Below are positions 49,347-60,885 of a stretch of DNA of 64,000 bases, piece after piece. Each line of letters starts with the position of its first letter. Position 1 is the stretch's first letter. The stretch spans positions 124,001 to 188,000 of the forward strand of contig CP089281.1 of assembly GCA_023920165.1 (NCBI GenBank), in the 5' to 3' direction. Made by a program: the position numbers and the translations under genes. The notes under the pieces are model-generated. The model ran no database searches, had not been told where the DNA came from, and worked only from the letters and a program-made list of their open reading frames with translations. This DNA is from Curvularia clavata (taxonomy: Eukaryota).

Positions 49347-52300
49347 CTACGAACCAATCTGGTCTTCTTTCTTTCTATGGATTAATTTGCGTAAGTTCTA
49401 GCATAGTGTAGTTAATACCTGAATGTAAAGCTCATATCATATACATATTGAATTCTTACCTCTAGTGATGATTCATTTGAGAGTAGAGTGGTGACGAGTA
49501 GTTTCTTCCGATCTTGAACGTCCAGGATGTACTAGGAAGAGACATGTTAGTGCATGGTATGTCATTGAATGAACAGCTTGTGGCTACCGATTGAAGAAAT
49601 ACAGTGGAACAATTACCTCTTCAAAGGAGTCGTCCATGACGTAACGAATAGTCCTTACAGGACGAGTCTGCCCCAAGCGATGAACGCGAGCAAGCGCTTG
49701 GTCTTCCAGAGAAGGGTTCCATTGTGGCTCGAGAAGGTGTGCCCTCGAAGCCGCAGTGAGATCCAGGCTTGTATAGTTGTCAGCAAAATGTGATAAATTG
49801 GTGAAGAGTGCTTAGTAAACCCACCCACAAGCACCACAAGCGATTGTGACCAGGATGACACGCATGCTAGGATCGTTATGGAGCTGTTGTATAGCGTAAT
49901 CTCGGTTCTTCAACGGTACATTGCCATCGATTCGGACTGACTGGATTATGCGATTCGGATCACACCGAAATGCCTTTTCTACCATGTCGAGGCTTGATGT
50001 CCAGCATGAGAATACCACACTAGCAGTAAGTCAATTATGAAATATGTTTCGGAGCTTCCACTGAACTGACTGTTTTTCATCCGGGTATAACCTAATTTGC
50101 GAAAGAAGAGCCGATATCTTGCTTGGAAGCGCACTGATGCTGTCGGACTCTATTGAGTAAGGAGAAAGGTCGGCACTGGGAGTGAGCCTTGGGGTAGGTA
50201 AGAATGATGTCAAAGGACGAAGTTGACATGGTGACGACTGGTCCGGACAAGCGCATGAATTCATAGCTCGATATTGAAGTAGTTTAGAGCAATTGGCGCA
50301 GTAGAAATTACTGCAAGCCGAGTAGTAGACCCGAGGTTTTTCGACATGCTGTAACGCACTGAATGGTGCTGAGACCTCGACTGGCTGCAGGCAATATACG
50401 CAAAGCTCCCCGCCCATTGCGAATCGAGCGGTCATCACTGACGTTTTTTCATCGATGCTATCCGGATTTGGGGTGCACCCGGATGGAGAGGGAGCAGTTA
50501 GCCCCAGATTGCAAAAAAGGCGAAGCTTGTTGATTTGTTGTATAACAGACATCCAGGTGCCGTTGGTATGGGTACCATTCTCTGGTATGCAATCTAGCAT
50601 ATCAGCTACGGGTTGTTCAATCCGGCGGTAGTGTTCTTTCTCTTCACGACTGAAAGGCACACGTATCAACTTGTCTTCTCTACTAGGTAGATCCAAGACA
50701 GCCTTCGTTCGCCTAAGCATGACACTCGAAAGAAGTTTCTTGAATACCTCAGCGGCCTGGTCGATAGATTTGACGCGCCAAACATGTGTTATATCGTCAT
50801 CAAACGCCTTCGGGTCGTCGTAAGGCGCGAAATGGAGGAATTTGAAGAGGCTATGCAAGTCTAGTAGACTGTTTTGGATTGGGGTGCCCGAGACTGCCCA
50901 TCTAGAGGTTGCCCGTAGCGCAGTCACTGCTTGTGCAGTCGAGGTGTTGTGATTTCGTATAATGTGTGCTAGGCAAGGTGAAAATCAGGATCGAATCGCA
51001 AACTGCAAAGTATCCCCCACACTTACCTTCATCAAGTATGATACGTCTCCAGTGGTGAAAGAATACGGAATCCTCACTTTCAGCGCGGTTGCGATACTCT
51101 CTCTCAATAGTCGGGTACGTAGTAAACACAACATCTAGTGAGTTTTAATCCGCGTATCTTGTATAATCTTTATACCATCAAGTCATACCAGGTTGGCTTT
51201 GCCTATCCCGCAGTCTAAACTTATTTTTGCCGTGATGCCTGCACCACTTCAACTTGCCCTTGTGTAGATGACTAGTGAAAGTTAGTTCGCGTGAGCTTTA
51301 TTCATAGGGGCGGCATACCGTTCTAGCTGTGATTCCCAGACGTTGAACACTATACAGAACGTCAGCGCGTATTAGGTTGAATTTTGCAGGTACCATTACA
51401 GCTTGGCGGTAGTACTATCAAGGTTGAGTGTATGGAGGTCTCAGAAACAGGGTGGCTCATGAGCAAATCGTTGCGTAAAGTGCGATCCTGATCAGACGCA
51501 ATCAGAGCAATCATGCTCAATGTCTTCCCAAGACCCATCTCATCAGCAAGCAATCCACCGAGCCACAAAGGTCCTGAAGTAGATCTGGCTTCATTGGTCA
51601 CAAGGTTTACAAAGCTAATACCCATCAAGATCAGCATTGATATCTAAAGATGCTCACTTTATACGCACGTTGAGCATTCTCCACTCATCTTTCGCAGCCA
51701 TATACCTAAGCCATCCTGGCTTGGATGTAGTCCCCGTTCTCGTCTTAGAAGGAAAGTCAGTGCTCGTCTCTGATGCCTGCGAAGACTTGTTAGCAGCTTT
51801 ACCTATCTCGCCACAAATTACTCACAGTTTCAACTCGGTGCGCAGTGCTGTTGGGTTACCCGACAACTTGATATCATCAGCAGTCTCGAAACCAGACAGA
51901 AAATCGAGAGAGGGTCGTGAAAAGTCATCCATGTGAGTTCTTTGCGGCTGTGACAACTCTAGGGTCATTGGAGGCTGTTCATGCAAGCTAAAGAGACATT
52001 GAGGGTTCATGTATGGGACGTTGCGGTCACAATCAACGGGATCATCCAAATAGCAACTAGCCTCGGCCATGAATTCGGCTACATCGCCAAGGCGTCGTCT
52101 GGGGCCATATATGATGACTCCAAGGAACTTGGTGCCATCTCTTGGTTGTTTCCGTTCAGTTGTGGGGGTAAGTGCAGTTGGAGAAAGCATGAGTTGTAAG
52201 ACGAGCTCGTCATCGGAAACAAGTGCTTGTAGTAACTTTGCACCATAGTCATCTAACTGTCCGCCTAATGTATCGAAAATACCACAGCAGATTGTGCGAG

Positions 52301-52643
52301 GTTGTTCAAAGCGAATTCGACGTTCGGGCGAGGCAGGAGGAGTGACATGATGAGCAGGATAGCGTACAACCAAATCTGATATCTGCATAGTGTAAGCATG
52401 GACTGCAAAGACGAGCAGAGTGTGACGAACCATGCCGTAACACACTAATGTATCTTCACATATCTCTCCCGCGGTTGCGCAGACAGATAATGGTGGTCCC
52501 GTCTGCTTCGAGGGTTCATGTTCGGACTCATTGCAAATGCTCGTAATCGTGACGCGTGCTACGGGGTGGGCATTCAGTCGTCGTCGTTTTGGGGACGGGG
52601 CCGCAGTATCATGGATCACTATTTTAGGGGGACGTTCCGTCAT
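49347..52643 (-). CDS. SNF2-family ATPase, Rad5/Rad16-like, with Cys-rich insert
   Basis: GGLLADEMGLGKT (motif I), FTTYPT, RIILDEAH (II), WAVSGTPIQN (III), VMLRRTK, Cys-rich RING-like insert, RIDGNV, GLDLTAASR..LLEPQWNP..EDQALARVHRLGQ (V/VI); many short introns. Confidence 0.9.
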
Positions 52644-52962
52644 ACTGTGGACTCATGAAGGGAGTAAGAAGTGTTGCTCTGCGAATCGCCATTATCATGA
52701 TGGAGGACGGCTGAAGGCTGCGAGAGTTGAGTAGACAGCCGCCAAGCCGTTAACAGCAAGCCACTGGGGCTGAGCAGGGCTGTGACACGACGCTAAACAG
52801 CTATGTCTTCAGCCTGGGAGTTGCTGCTGCTCGCCAGCTTTTTTTTTCAGTTCTTCGAGATACTGCGCACTGATTGTGTTTGAGGTGCCAGCAGTGTGTA
52901 TCGTGTCTGGGTCAAGACGTCAGGTTCCACTGCCCCGCGACTCCCGCGCGCGGCCCGATCCG
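52644..52962. promoter_or_regulatory. Putative bidirectional promoter shared by the SNF2 and NACHT genes
   Basis: Only 319 bp between divergent start codons (52643 on -, 52963 on +). Function inferred from geometry only. Confidence 0.5.
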
Positions 52963-55900
52963 ATGGCCGCCCCCGCCCCTTCCGCGCAAGCCCGCCAGAC
53001 GCTTCAACAAGCCTTCGACCGGTTCGCTGCCACCGTCACCCCAGACGACCACCGCCTGTTCCACAACACCCAGCTGAAAGATGTCCGAGATGAGGCACTC
53101 TCAATCGAGCGGCGGCTTCGCGCTCGACGCATGCAAAAGAACATGGCCCGACTTGATCCATTTCTACGGGGAATGGAGCATTATTCAAAGGTAGTCGAGG
53201 TGCTGTGTAATGGAACACCCTACCTGTCATGGATTTGGGCACCGGTAAAACTGATGCTTATGGTGAGTATGATGCAAAATCATGATACAGATTACTTACA
53301 GAGACCAACAGATCACAATGGATTCCATCAGTGCCTTTGAAAAGTTGATAGAGGCGTATGGCAAGATCGCAGATATGCTTCCTCGCCTAGATCGACTCGC
53401 GAAAGCACTTGCTGACGATCACAACTTCCAAAATGTACTAGCTCTGGTGTACTCCGACATCATAGAGTTCCATCAGCGCGCTTATAAGTTTGTTCGAAGA
53501 AAATGTGAGTTTTGCACCAGTGTCACGTTGTACTGTACTCACGACTCATAGCATGGGCCACATTCTTTGGCTCTATGTGGGCTGGGTTTGAATCTCGGTT
53601 CAACGGGATCTTGGAGAGGCTGGCTTATCATAGCAAGCTAGTTGACAAAGAAGCCACCGCAGCCGACATTGCTGAAGCCATCCGGCGCAACAAAGCAGAC
53701 GACAAGAAGTGGGAGCAACAAGAGCGTGAATGGGCTGCTGTGAGTCTATATCGATGCGCGCGCGGTATGAACATCACAAACTAATTCCGCATGCCAATTC
53801 AGACTAAGGTTCAGAGAGTCCTGGTCTGGCTCGGATCGGATGATACCCTTCCAGCCGACATACTCGAGCGGCACATCCGAGGTTACTTGCCAGGCAGCTG
53901 CGACTGGTTCATACAACACAAAGCAACGCAGCTATGGTTTGGGGATGGTGCAAAAAATCACCTTCTGTGGCTTTGCGGAAAACCAGGCGCGGGTATGTTC
54001 CTATATCTGCGTCGCTAGTCACTTGCTTACCTATCTAAAAAGGAAAATCCATGATCTGCTCTGCCCTCGTGCAACATGCAGAAGCAAATGATATCCACGT
54101 GTTCTACTACTTCTGCAGTTGTTTCAGAAGCAGTTCTGATGGTACAAACCGTTTACTACGTTCCATAATCTCGCAGATAATCCAGAAACACCAGGATCTC
54201 GCAGTCTACGTTCATGACGTCTATTTCAAATCATATCCACTGCCAACGAAGAAGGCATTGCTGAGTCTTCTTCCTGAGCTCCTTCGAGGATTGGGCTCTG
54301 TACGGCTTGTTGTAGACGGCGTTGACGAGTGGGTGGCACAAGATCAAAAGGAGCTTCTTCAGGATCTTTCGAAGATGGTTTCAACCGACCAATCCTCTCA
54401 CGTTTGCAAGATCATGGTTGCCAGCCAAGATACCATGGATATCGCGCGGTCGCTGCGTAAGAAGGATAGATCCGCAACGACGATCTCCCTTAACAATCGC
54501 GACGAACGTCTCGCAGTCGATTCTGCAATTGCCAAATTCGTCGATAGCAAGCTGCAAGATGCTCCTGATCATTTCGATGAGGTTGATCCGGATGCCTCAA
54601 TCCTGAATCATATCAAGCAAACCCTGCTCAAAAATTCCCATGGTAATTCTCCTTACCCTGATTAGTATTAACCGATGTTCTAATAGCTACATAGGCATGT
54701 TCTTATGGGTGAGCCTTGTACTTGAATCAATGAACACAGTTTACAGCCCTGAGGAGCTGCGAACTATTGTTGATGATCTTCCTTCTGATCTAGAGGCCCT
54801 TTACGAACGAATTTTGGTTCGTCTCTGCAGTGCTCCAGGTGCTCAGAGTCACGGGGGCGTATCGCGTATCATGAGCTGGGTATGCTTTGCACAAAGACCG
54901 CTGCACAAGTCAGAGCTGCTGCATGCACTGTCGATTCTTCCACACGATACATTGTCTAAAGTCAGGAGTGTACCTGTTGCATCTATCCTCGATCACTGCA
55001 AGCCACTCATTGAAGAACTTCCAGACTCTACAATAGTGCCAGTCCACTTTTCCGTGAAGAGGTGCGTTTTTTCATAAGTTACTGACCACGTGTCTCATTT
55101 TCAAACAGATATTTCCTCACATCTCGAATACCGCAAATTGTTCCAGCGATCGATGCTACTCGGGATCTATCGTCAGTTTGCGCCATTGTGATTACACGAG
55201 CCCTCAATCTCTTACTTCTGGACAAAAATTCTACTGATTATCTTTGCCATCTAGTAAGTGGTAAGTACAGGCTTCTGGCATATGCATTGGAGTTCTGGAT
55301 TGAGCACTGCTTGCAACACGCGTTCGAAAGAGGAAGTCTAGGCACAGACCAACCGCTTCAGCATCATCTCGCTCAAATGCATGAAAAACATATGGAAGTT
55401 TGCAATGCCGTTCAGCGCACCTCGACTCCAGTCAGGACGCAAGATGCAAACGACCTTAATCACAAAGATGACCGGCTTGAGGCATTTTCCAACATGCCAA
55501 TACATGGTTTGATGATAGATGTACTACGCCTCAGGCGATTGACCAGCCAGCTCGATGGAGAAAAGGCATCTGGTACGTCACGACTAGTTGATTTTTACCC
55601 ATGAAGCTGTCCACAGGCTAACTAGGCATTTACTAGACATCGACACTTATGTCATTGCTAATGACCAAACACTCTTCAGTAAACTTGCCCAAAAACACGA
55701 AAGTGCAGTTGTACGCCTTCTAGGAAAAGATGAAGTTGAGGGTATCTCGTCAACCATTCTCCGCGCATTCCAGGATTCCTACGCTTCCACGGCTTTTCGC
55801 TGCCGCTTTCCTCATTGTAACAGGCTATCTTCTGGATTTGCTACTGCAGAGCTACGGCGCAAACATGAAACTACCCATATACAACGTGTGTATTGCCAGA

Positions 55901-56868
55901 CAGTCTCCTGTCAGTACAGCCGCATTGGCTTTGCGAAAAGGAGCTTACTCAATGCACACATGCGTACACATCACGGACAACCGAATTTACTGAATATACC
56001 CAAACAGATACGACAATCCGCAACGCTTAATCAAGTCCAACACAACCAAGGTGTAAAGAGGCCCAACGAGGATACCATAGACTCCAGCGCTAACACTACT
56101 CCACAAGCCCCCGTTATGGCTTTTCCAAAGACTCAGGAGGCTTCCAACAACGGTATGCCTAATGGATTTGCACCTGGTCAGCCCAACGAAGGCCAGCCAT
56201 CGGCTGACGCTGGTCCACAAGGCCCCATAGATCCTCAGCCTGGTCCTATGCCAACTCAGCAGGCCAACCGACAGCCTTTGACTGAACAAGTTCGCATGAG
56301 TATGATGCCACCTGAGCTCGATAATTCTATAAAGCGACAATTACTCAGAGTGCCCGAACACCAGTTCCGTGTCATCCTACAGAGCTACATGACGAACCTC
56401 CGCCGCAACAACGGCATGCCCGATGGATCTGCACCTGGTCATCCCAACGCAAGCCAGCCACCGCCTGGCGCTGGCCCCATAGATCCTCAGCGTGGTCCAT
56501 TGCCAACTCAGCAACAGCGCGTCGCTGCTGCTGCCAATCTGCTTCGGGCCAACCCTGGCATCATCACCACTACGGACCCCAAGCCGTTCCCTCCTAATAT
56601 ACTAAACGCGCGAATTCGACAAGATCTTCCACCAGACGTTAGAACCTGGCAGCAACTCAAGGGATGGGCTGCCCAAAACCCTGCTCTTGTTCCTGGTGTT
56701 GATAGCCAGAAGTTGATCATGCTACAAGTTCTACACTTCCAGGACGCAGTAAGACAGTCGAATGGTGTCAAAAGTGTCCCTGATATTGAGCCAAGACCAT
56801 ACATGAAACAATTCACTGCACAAGACCGACCCAGCAAGACAGCAGACTTAAATCCAACCCGAAGCTAG
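52963..56868 (+). CDS. NACHT (STAND) NTPase / NLR-like protein with two C2H2 zinc fingers and a Q/P-rich, Med15-like C-terminus
   Basis: Eight exons; introns 53263-53311, 53505-53551, 53740-53802, 53993-54042, 54643-54694, 55062-55108, 55573-55636 give an open frame of 1177 aa. Walker A LWLCGKPGAGKS, Walker B RLVVDGVDE, GMFLWVSL, LPSDLEALYERIL, WVCFAQRPL, VHFSVK; C2H2 fingers at ~55795-55975. Confidence 0.9.
56145..56513 (+). repeat. Imperfect in-frame direct duplication (~110 bp units) inside the NACHT gene
   Basis: 56145-56261 (NNGMPNGFAPGQPNEGQPSADAGPQGPIDPQPGPMPTQQ) vs 56406-56513 (NNGMPDGSAPGHPNASQPPPGAGPIDPQRGPLPTQQ), similar at DNA level. Confidence 0.85.

Positions 56869-59727: not shown

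Positions 59728-60885
<1,158 letters not shown>

Follow-up and report, generated by a model that had tools for sequence, protein, structure and literature searches.

An NLR-like gene of Curvularia clavata, lying in the 64-kb stretch of DNA that was analysed (the window), ends in a tail that is, by sequence comparison, a rearranged in-frame DNA copy of Pleosporales Med15. Taken as a whole, this arrangement is best explained, if tentatively, by the Med15 tail serving as an integrated bait.

Structure of the gene

The gene, which corresponds to C. clavata yc1106_09521, was modelled with bounds that agree with tblastn of homologues. It is an intact NLR-like STAND gene, with Walker A and Walker B motifs and seven canonical introns, all GT..AG and 47-64 nt in length. 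The parts of the encoded protein are ordered DUF7708, NACHT, two atypical C2H2 fingers and tail. The public model, P0002, is 1112 amino acids long and is mis-spliced in the P-loop region. The features upstream of the Med15 pieces are as follows:

52963-56868, forward strand: whole gene, eight exons, 1178 amino acids
52963-53262, 53312-53504, 53552-53739 and 53803-53992, forward strand: exons 1-4, own gene model
54043-54642, 54695-55061, 55109-55572 and 55637-56868, forward strand: exons 5-8, own gene model
52963-53739, forward strand: DUF7708 N-terminal domain (Pfam, 68.3 bits, cut-off 25, residues 65-206 of P0002)
53977-54332, forward strand: NACHT-type NTPase core (Walker motifs and Pfam NPHP3_N)
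53977-54050, forward strand: Walker A motif GKPGAGKS, interrupted by the intron 53993-54042
54306-54332, forward strand: Walker B-like motif LVVDGVDEW
55573-55636, forward strand: last intron, 64 nt, GT..AG, upstream of the fingers
55801-55878 and 55894-55974, forward strand: two atypical C2H2 fingers, by the pattern C-x4-C-x15-H-x3-H
55975-56043, forward strand: native linker after the fingers, upstream of the Med15 pieces

The core belongs to the P-loop NTPases of the NACHT/NPHP3_N clade: exon 5 matched NPHP3_N with 61.5 bits (cut-off 24.8) and NACHT with 21.6 bits, under the cut-off of 26.7, and the family homologues matched NPHP3_N with E = 1e-31 to 1e-36. In the N-terminal position, where a fungal NLR-like STAND protein carries an effector-type domain, DUF7708 was found as a putative effector domain. 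A feature search of Atlas clusters named for DUF7708 found Goodbye in 16-23% and NACHT_N in 10-12% of their members, a lead only, from which the DUF7708 domain may be Goodbye/NACHT_N-like.

Of the 37 family proteins that were examined, 19 had the finger pattern, ankyrin and WD40 members among them. No Pfam zinc-finger match to the fingers was obtained at E <= 1, and the pair is not of the classical C2H2 transcription factor type, which combines a zf-C2H2 match with C-x2-4-C-x12-H spacing. Med15 has a finger of its own with the same odd spacing, and the family finger profile matched it in 33 Med15 proteins, these matches being weak (10-16.5 bits; pairwise comparison E = 0.001). The conservation of the finger pair in the family is as compatible with a nuclear or DNA-linked role as with sensing. 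Likeness to the NACHT homologues stops at ∼56013-56085 (tblastn end points, P0020-P0026).

The gene is flanked upstream by a divergent SNF2-type gene and downstream by an Iso_dh gene, and no helper or paired NLR adjoins it.

The tail is a rearranged copy of Med15

Two peptides had been noted by the initial annotation in an intron-free stretch after the zinc fingers and likened to Med15. Both were found exactly as quoted and in one frame; the stop-free frame at 55588-56865 (426 codons) spans fingers and tail with no intron between, and the 295 codons of the tail are open. The likeness proved to be real and far beyond chance. When the last 191 residues were used as the query, 18 proteins were matched at E <= 0.01, the best of which was P0003 (E = 2e-68); they comprised the window's own protein, 14 carriers of the Med15 KIX domain (PF16987) and three N-terminally truncated Med15 models. 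The last exon, when aligned to P0003 by BLASTP, gave 141 identical residues out of 211 (E = 3e-85). The comparison with the donor was made with Med15 of close relatives, P0003 being the nearest stand-in for the organism's own Med15.

The tail is collinear with P0003 residues ∼485-702, with an identity of 67% overall and 84% with gaps excluded, and extra pieces correspond to Med15 residues ∼859-893 and 536-614. The pieces are arranged as follows:

56044-56148, forward strand: Med15 piece C, P0003 residues 859-893, out of order as the first of the Med15 pieces
56145-56261, forward strand: linker copy 1, Med15 residues 536-614 minus ∼40 amino acids, by protein match
56263-56406, forward strand: Med15 block 1, P0003 residues ∼488-535, two predicted helices
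56407-56514, forward strand: linker copy 2, with the deletion as in copy 1, by protein match and repeat
56515-56778, forward strand: Med15 block 2, P0003 residues 615-702, five-helix fold (AF2)
56779-56868, forward strand: short unique C-terminus and TAG stop

Piece C is 54% identical to P0003 over 35 amino acids (pairwise E = 1e-7), and tblastn agrees with this assignment. The duplication of the linker is visible as in-frame direct repeats, 56145-56216 with 56406-56477 (85%) and 56221-56261 with 56473-56513 (93%). Block 1 was modelled with an AF2 pLDDT of 80-89 across model residues 1-40. Likeness to true Med15 at the DNA level runs out at ∼56799, and a loose end in run X2 continues as Med15 beyond this point.

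Neither a KIX domain (KIX_2, Med15_N), which is carried by the Med15 proteins P0003, P0008 and P0013, nor Med15_fungi, the C-terminal Mediator-association region, was found by Pfam in P0002 or the last exon. Because the KIX domain and the Mediator-anchoring domain have been lost, the Med15 copy would be unable to act as Med15. Matches of P0003 by tblastn in the 64-kb window were limited to residues 485-702, 859-893 and 536-614, and no further Med15 remnants (region A, KIX) were detected by this method within or downstream of the gene. Ankyrin, WD40 and TPR repeats were absent from the last exon by Pfam at E <= 1. Seven metagenome Med15 loci have no intron across Med15 codons 430-1521, and the intron-free state of the tail is therefore uninformative on capture through RNA or DNA.

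Transcript and DNA support for the fusion

Splicing of the last intron was evident from a 151-nt contig of metatranscriptome run X5, which joins 55571/2 to 55636/7 with 0 mismatches. Within the tail there was one identical contig of 161 nt, from a run that is only presumed to be RNA; the absence of contig cover over other tail parts carries no weight. The junction of the fingers with Med15 piece C is bridged by a 349-nt contig of a relative, at 26 mismatches, and a 506-nt contig of another relative, at 51 mismatches and 4 gaps, runs collinearly from linker 1 through block 1 and linker 2 to block 2. The run with the 506-nt contig also holds contigs in true Med15 order. An artefact, whether from a chimeric assembly or from two adjacent genes fused in the gene model, is extremely improbable. 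The public model P0002 is wrong in the P-loop region and its database cluster has one member only, as might be expected of such an artefact, but a single exon, read in one frame, runs through fingers and tail without an intervening stop, the finger-Med15 junction and the internal rearrangement are each bridged by independent contigs of other runs, and no other Med15 part was found anywhere in the 64-kb window.

Age and rate of divergence

In a tree of 40 rows the window block paired with P0003 (98/78) and then with Bipolaris-type Med15 (99/95), and this Bipolaris-type group lay inside a Pleosporaceae clade (95/84). Since the main ordered block of the tail nests inside the Bipolaris-type Med15 clade, the capture is recent. 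The nesting and the collinear match together bear out the earlier proposal of a captured host Med15 fragment, and, as in other integrated domains, the extra domain copies a host protein, its place in the tree being within Med15 of the fungus's own lineage. The 40-row tree was a careful rebuild of a 59-row quick tree that fell short of the optimum, a constrained tree having outscored it. It was built without the partial models P0058, P0019 and P0076, without P0009, P0010 and P0012 (identical to P0011), and without the distant or long rows P0079, P0079b, P0087, P0088, P0089, P0091, P0093, P0094, P0095, P0096, P0100, P0103, P0104, P0109, P0110, P0111, P0112, P0113 and P0114.

The Med15 copy is estimated to evolve about 20 times faster than true Med15, with 20 unique changes in the window vs 1 in P0003 (binomial p = 2e-5). 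Substitutions were found at 15 of the 132 block positions: one lay among the 45 columns of highest conservation, and the remaining 87 columns had 14 (substitution vs conservation, Mann-Whitney p = 0.0017). As judged from the alignment, the tail changes avoid conserved Med15 columns, which is a pattern of fast but constrained evolution. The two linker copies gave a pN/pS of 0.82 from 14 differences and look nearly neutral. Between the tail and the Med15 DNA of the seven metagenome loci synonymous sites were saturated (dS above 1 or undefined); pairs of true Med15 from these loci gave ω of ∼0.009-0.036.

Block 2 and activator-binding domain 1

Block 2 is 88% identical to P0003 and was modelled with a mean AF2 pLDDT of 84. 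It is probably the counterpart of activator-binding domain 1 (ABD1) of yeast Gal11, a correspondence on which three separate searches agree, each of them weakly. Against Pfam, the last exon gave a single match, to Gal11_ABD1, at E = 0.089, under the family cut-off. In a structure comparison, PDB 2LPB, Gal11 ABD1 with Gcn4, ranked top of 48,161 chains (Z 4.6, rmsd 3.2), with 72 of 81 residues aligned at 18% identity and a Z score tied with unrelated helical rows. A profile search over block 2 returned 7jmn MED15 (E = 3.6e-8) and aligned the block with yeast Med15 residues ∼160-240; the construct descriptions in PMC5908246 place yeast ABD1 at residues 158-238. Foldseek gave no match for either model at E <= 0.001, and a single-sequence search of solved structures yielded none for the Med15 P0003 at E <= 1 and one chance match for the tail (E = 1.2). 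Like ABD1, block 2 is conserved in Med15 of many fungi. However, the Pfam, 2LPB and alignment links all fall under the usual significance, and binding of activation domains is putative both for the Pleosporales Med15 block and for its copy in the tail.

Tails in the family

The initial annotation had suggested that homologues be compared at their C-termini, and differing host-derived tails were found there, including Med15-matching tails in 4 of 19 finger-bearing homologues, each from a different Med15 region. Other homologue tails carried Myb, ankyrin or WD40, and in the nearest homologues the fingers were kept and the tails differed. The gene in the window falls in a clade of seven rows (support 99) with five tail types, outside which the ankyrin and WD40 members lie; repeats of the ankyrin, WD40 or TPR type were found in the more distant members P0032, P0033, P0037 and P0041. 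Sixty database proteins were examined (59 of 61 search matches plus P0043), and the finger region and Med15 block 2 occurred together in 10 of them; in other proteins block 2 stood beside ARID or PHD domains. In a Bipolaris maydis homologue the Med15 piece was very diverged (43% identity, branch length 1.47).

A single clade for all nine tail copies was rejected (p-AU = 3e-5). A common origin was not rejected for the P0043 and P0067 tails and the window block 2 (p-AU 0.11; 0.69 with the quick tree). For the region A tail copies three label changes were needed, each copy lying near Med15 of its own lineage. The family would repeatedly re-sample Med15 and other nuclear co-regulator modules at the tail slot.

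Possible functions of the tail

The C-terminal slot, which holds ankyrin or WD40 in distant members, is here filled by the activator-binding part of Med15, and in the bait model a binder of the true Med15 surface would bind the tail instead. Such a binder could be an effector or transactivator of an invader, or a host activation domain under monitoring. Ligand binding would release the NACHT switch, leading to oligomerization and signalling by the N-terminal domain. We know of no natural antagonist of fungal Med15. A precedent from the animal side is the bacterial effector NleG5-1, described as targeting MED15 (PMC7279228).

It is less likely that the tail is a co-opted working module of a nucleotide-switched nuclear regulator, placed on DNA or chromatin by the fingers, in which the activator-binding domain of Med15 would hold activation domains and either recruit them or titrate them from Mediator. 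The initial annotation, too, had named a transcriptional module as its alternative to a decoy. The finger pair is kept in 19/19 finger-bearing family members, the captured modules are transcription-linked (Med15 pieces and Myb here, block 2 by ARID or PHD elsewhere), conserved Med15 positions are largely spared by the substitutions, as retained binding would predict, and bacterial STAND ATPases with DNA-binding domains, such as MalT and AfsR, are regulators. Yet a conserved regulator should keep its tail, and one tight clade holds five tail types. The roughly 20-fold faster rate of the Med15 copy and the sensor repeats, ankyrin or WD40, that related members have at this position also argue against a regulator, and DNA binding by fingers lacking a Pfam C2H2 match at E <= 1 is putative.

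Still less probable is a neutral by-product, in which a recent ectopic duplication or template switch pasted Med15 onto the 3' end of the gene, where it is tolerated and slowly decaying without a function. The scrambled order of the pieces, the internal duplication and the deletion would suit this origin, as would the linker pN/pS of 0.82, the strongly raised protein rate and the diverged Bipolaris maydis piece. Against decay stand the 295 codons that are still open, the rearranged form kept in relatives 7-10% apart in DNA, the depletion of substitutions in conserved columns (1/45 vs 14/87, p = 0.0017) and the same block after the fingers in at least 10 other proteins. The integrated bait is the reading that we favour, with the reserve stated at the outset. 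A wider proposal, which we regard as doubtful, is that a Pleosporales NLR-like clade guards the interface of Mediator and activators, each member having behind the fixed finger pair a bait derived from Med15 or from some other nuclear co-regulator. Such baits would be renewed repeatedly from the resident Med15, through new capture or through gene conversion at the shared block, and would follow their target through an arms race against whichever mycoviruses, mycoparasites or bacteria hijack fungal transcription.

Comparison with known systems

The integrated bait is a key concept of plant immunity, where NLRs with integrated domains include RGA5 and Pik-1 (HMA) and RRS1 (WRKY). As in these, a host domain copy is fused to an NLR-type switch outside the canonical domains, at a variable and re-used integration site, and diverges faster than its donor. 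The present gene differs in having a fungal NACHT/NPHP3_N NTPase rather than NB-ARC, no LRRs and no paired helper NLR nearby (a head-to-head helper is frequent in plants without being obligatory). Its donor is a Mediator co-activator surface, and the bait role of the copy is putative. MalT and AfsR, bacterial STAND transcription regulators, share an NTP-switched STAND core to which a C-terminal sensor and a module that may bind nucleic acid are joined, a likeness drawn at the level of P-loop class only; here DNA binding by the fingers is putative.

To our knowledge, integrated baits in fungi are so far proposals, drawn from Pfam domain surveys. The Pfam-based survey of Sordariales NLRs in PMC12258605, which cites the plant integrated domains as a concept, proposes a CHK2/PRD-4-like PKinase as an integrated decoy and lists C-terminal C2H2 fingers in 34 NLRs and Myb in one NLR. 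These fungal NLRs are similar to the present gene in their non-canonical C-terminal domains, including C2H2 fingers, and in a host gene copy as proposed decoy, whereas in the present family a single donor is represented repeatedly, by several different pieces, across a clade. The word Mediator does not occur in the main text of that survey, and Med15, KIX and Gal11 are absent from the 12 of its 17 supplementary files searched (PMC12258605). No publication that connects Med15 with fungal NLRs turned up in literature searches.

Pfam-based surveys cannot see the Med15 blocks because no Pfam model matches them above cut-off, and domain-library surveys would miss such captures. The gene offers a datable, sequence-level case in which part of a host gene has been joined to an NLR-like gene of a fungus, and with it comes a whole family whose shared slot has taken up various parts of one donor. 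What fungal NLRs sense could be asked with the tail, its natural variants and the true Med15 domain as reagents, and the activator-binding surface of Mediator may be something that fungi need to watch.

Structure of the gene and its product

The gene was modelled here with eight exons and seven GT..AG introns of 47–64 nt, encoding 1178 amino acids, and its exon boundaries coincide with the end and start points of homologue matches (tblastn). The window DNA is fungal, and the public model of the gene (C. clavata yc1106_09521, P0002, 1112 aa) is 100% identical to the protein of the last exon. In P0002 two introns near the P-loop (window 53740–54050) are read through or mis-spliced and the P-loop is lost; in the corrected model Walker A (GKPGAGKS) is split by an intron and Walker B (LVVDGVDEW) lies downstream of it. 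The features are as follows.

Features of the gene and its surroundings
50031–52652, minus strand: SNF2-related gene, helicase-like, transcribed divergently from the NLR-like gene
52963–56868, plus strand: NLR-like gene
53993–54042, plus strand: intron splitting Walker A
55588–56865, plus strand: stop-free frame of 426 codons
55801–55878 and 55894–55974, plus strand: C2H2 finger pair with the spacing C-x4-C-x15-H-x3-H, found by pattern
59728–60786, minus strand: isocitrate/isopropylmalate dehydrogenase

Neither adjoining gene is an NLR. Pfam placed DUF7708 at the N-terminus (68.3 bits) and NPHP3_N in exon 5 (61.5 bits), where NACHT scored 21.6 bits, under its cut-off; a feature search put DUF7708 near two domains known from fungal STAND proteins, Goodbye and NACHT_N, which is taken as a lead only. 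The last exon matched no Pfam family at E ≤ 1, and its sole Pfam match, to Gal11_ABD1 (E = 0.089), was obtained with the final 122 residues alone as query. Downstream of the fingers the same exon continues into the tail, which is rich in Q, P and N and contains the two ordered blocks; both peptides quoted in the initial annotation fall inside the open frame.

The tail is rearranged Med15

A search with the C-terminal 191 residues matched 18 proteins (717–2045 aa) at E ≤ 0.01: the window's own protein, 14 proteins with a Med15 KIX domain, from sources including Bipolaris, Alternaria, Pyrenophora and Karstenula, and three Med15 models truncated at the N-terminus. Seventeen of the 18 are Med15 proteins, in line with the initial annotation, the best match being P0003 (1520 aa).

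BLASTP matches of the last-exon reading (P0001) to P0003
P0001 230–397 to P0003 492–702: 141/211 identical, E = 3e-85; gaps are deletions of ∼39 aa and 3 aa, both in the Q-rich linker
P0001 153–187 to P0003 859–893: 54% identity, E = 1e-7
P0001 187–225 to P0003 536–614: carries a deletion also found in the 230–397 match

In the DNA the linker occurs as an in-frame duplication (56145–56216 and 56406–56477, 85%; 56221–56261 and 56473–56513, 93%). From these repeats and the three matches the tail is read as piece C, linker, block 1, linker, block 2; Med15, by contrast, has block 1, linker, block 2, piece C. Nowhere does the 64-kb window contain further parts of Med15, neither the KIX domain nor the Mediator-association region. 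The deposited Bipolaris sorokiniana Med15 model (P0013) lacks the block 1–block 2 stretch present in all other Med15 rows, a gap that probably reflects erroneous intron calling in a Q-rich region.

Bridging contigs were recovered from independent sequencing runs. The last intron is spliced out exactly in a 151-nt contig without mismatch from a metatranscriptome (X5), and a run whose RNA status is a guess (X1) gave identical contigs at 55698–55860 and 56570–56730. A 349-nt contig from a relative (X2, 26 mismatches) bridges the fingers into piece C (55840–56188), and a 506-nt contig from another (X7, 51 mismatches and 4 gaps) is collinear over 56161–56662, covering the rearranged order plus the linker deletion. 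These runs also yielded contigs in the true Med15 order, with a linker longer by 129 letters, piece C 461 letters after block 2, and loose ends interpreted as Med15 sequence. As the contigs of the relatives carry the junction and the rearranged order, an assembly artefact was ruled out as the source of the chimera, which must be older than the 7–10% DNA divergence of these relatives.

Block 2 resembles an activator-binding domain

Block 2 is conserved in the Med15 of many fungi. When 1.84 billion representative proteins were searched for likeness to the tail, 61 matched at E ≤ 0.001, most of them Med15 or fragments of it. Two bacterial matches (P0090 and P0108, with Listeria-Bacteroides and Cry1Aa domain IV repeats) bear no likeness to Med15 and were rejected as false positives. 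A region profile matched the MED15 chain of 7jmn over block 2 (E = 3.6e-8) and aligned yeast Med15 ∼160–240 with a score that was not significant; yeast ABD1 comprises residues 158–238 according to construct descriptions in PMC5908246. AlphaFold models were confident, with pLDDT 80–98 over the blocks in a 191-residue model; block 2 modelled by itself reached a mean pLDDT of 84 and a pTM of 0.68. When this second model was compared with 48,161 chains, the highest-ranking structure was 2LPB chain A, Gal11 ABD1 bound to Gcn4 (Z 4.6, rmsd 3.2 Å, 72/81 residues, 18% identity), with which unrelated helical proteins tie within one Z unit; with the longer model 2LPB ranked sixth, and Foldseek returned no match at E ≤ 0.001 for either model. 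Block 2 is probably an activator-binding domain of the ABD1 type, as predicted from profile and fold.

Age and rate of change

The tail is a recent derivative of Med15 that has changed at a raised rate around a retained core. A carefully built block 2 tree (40 rows, 88 columns) places the window as sister to P0003 (98/78), and the two join Bipolaris sorokiniana-type Med15 (99/95) inside the Pleosporaceae Med15 clade (95/84). The window's branch length is 0.20, against 0–0.016 for true Med15 rows, and with two outgroups it has 20 unique changes against one in P0003 (p = 2e-5). The changes in blocks 1 and 2 are not random: the 132 positions have 15 substitutions, only one of them in the 45 columns best conserved in Med15 and 14 in the remaining 87 (Mann-Whitney p = 0.0017 for substitutions against column conservation). 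Divergence between the two linker copies seems close to neutral (pN/pS 0.82 from 14 differences). In a dN/dS comparison with Med15 DNA from seven metagenome loci, synonymous sites are saturated, and as these loci have no intron across Med15 codons 430–1521, the intron-free state of the tail is uninformative.

Tails of homologues and number of origins

The NACHT-to-finger part as query found 37 proteins, 19 of which have the finger pair by pattern; ankyrin repeats (P0032, P0033) or WD40 (P0037, P0041) follow the fingers in some. The window forms a polytomy with six close homologues in a seven-row clade (support 99).

Tails of close homologues
P0021, Bipolaris maydis: Med15 210–267, 43% identity
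P0022, Parastagonospora nodorum: Med15 203–269, 73% identity, E = 7e-32
P0023, Alternaria: Myb (Myb/SANT-like)
P0026, Alternaria alternata: Myb (Myb/SANT-like) and Med15 1072–1158, E = 1e-23
P0020 and P0024, Alternaria: coiled tail, no donor assigned

The position after the fingers is a variable slot, and the check for other host-derived tails there, proposed with the Med15 capture, was answered by two further Med15 pieces (203–269/210–267 and 1072–1158) and Myb. The lysine- and glutamate-rich coiled segment of P0020 and P0024 matched neither Med15 nor Pfam. The Med15 1072–1158 piece of P0026 includes a KKRAK-type basic stretch.

Of 60 database proteins inspected (P0043 and 59 of the 61 matches to the tail), ten have both the family finger region and block 2, and several of these ten also have another Med15 stretch, region A. 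A single clade for all nine block 2 tail copies was rejected (p-AU = 3e-5; 1.7e-5 on a larger quick tree), and a clade of the window, P0043 and P0067 was not (p = 0.11). The region A tail copies need three label changes; that of P. nodorum adjoins Phaeosphaeriaceae-type Med15, and those of P0043, P0067 and P0084 lie inside the Pleosporaceae clade. These trees suggest either several captures of Med15 or repeated conversion of the tails by the Med15 gene resident in the genome.

Block 2 also turns up outside the NACHT family. In P0060 it groups with Med15 P0015 (100/95) and is accompanied by WW, EVH1_PP4R3, Myb, PHD and a C2H2 finger, and the Myb of this protein resembles that of the NACHT tails; in P0094 and P0109 a block 2-like segment adjoins an ARID domain. 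Pezizomycotina Med15 has a finger of its own (P0003 ∼1188–1216) with the C-x4-C-x15-H-x3-H spacing and central GF of the NACHT-family fingers, and those fingers might in turn have been captured from Med15 long ago; the finger profile scored only 10–16.5 bits against the Med15 finger.

Bait or regulator

Literature searches turned up no earlier report of a link between Med15 and fungal NLRs. Passages of a survey of Sordariales NLRs describe 34 with C-terminal C2H2 fingers and name a CHK2-like kinase as a candidate decoy; the terms Mediator, Med15, KIX and Gal11 are absent from these passages and from 12 of its 17 supplementary files (PMC12258605). Pfam-type surveys would miss such tails because the Med15 blocks have no usable Pfam model. 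A precedent for Med15 as an effector target is given in a review, EHEC NleG5-1 acting on MED15 (PMC7279228).

The main alternative to a bait is a nucleotide-switched nuclear regulator with a borrowed activator-binding domain, a reading favoured by the fixed finger pair and by captured modules that are all nuclear. The rapid turnover of the tails, and the relatives with ankyrin and WD40, favour a sensor instead. We infer that the tail may serve as bait within an NLR-type switch.
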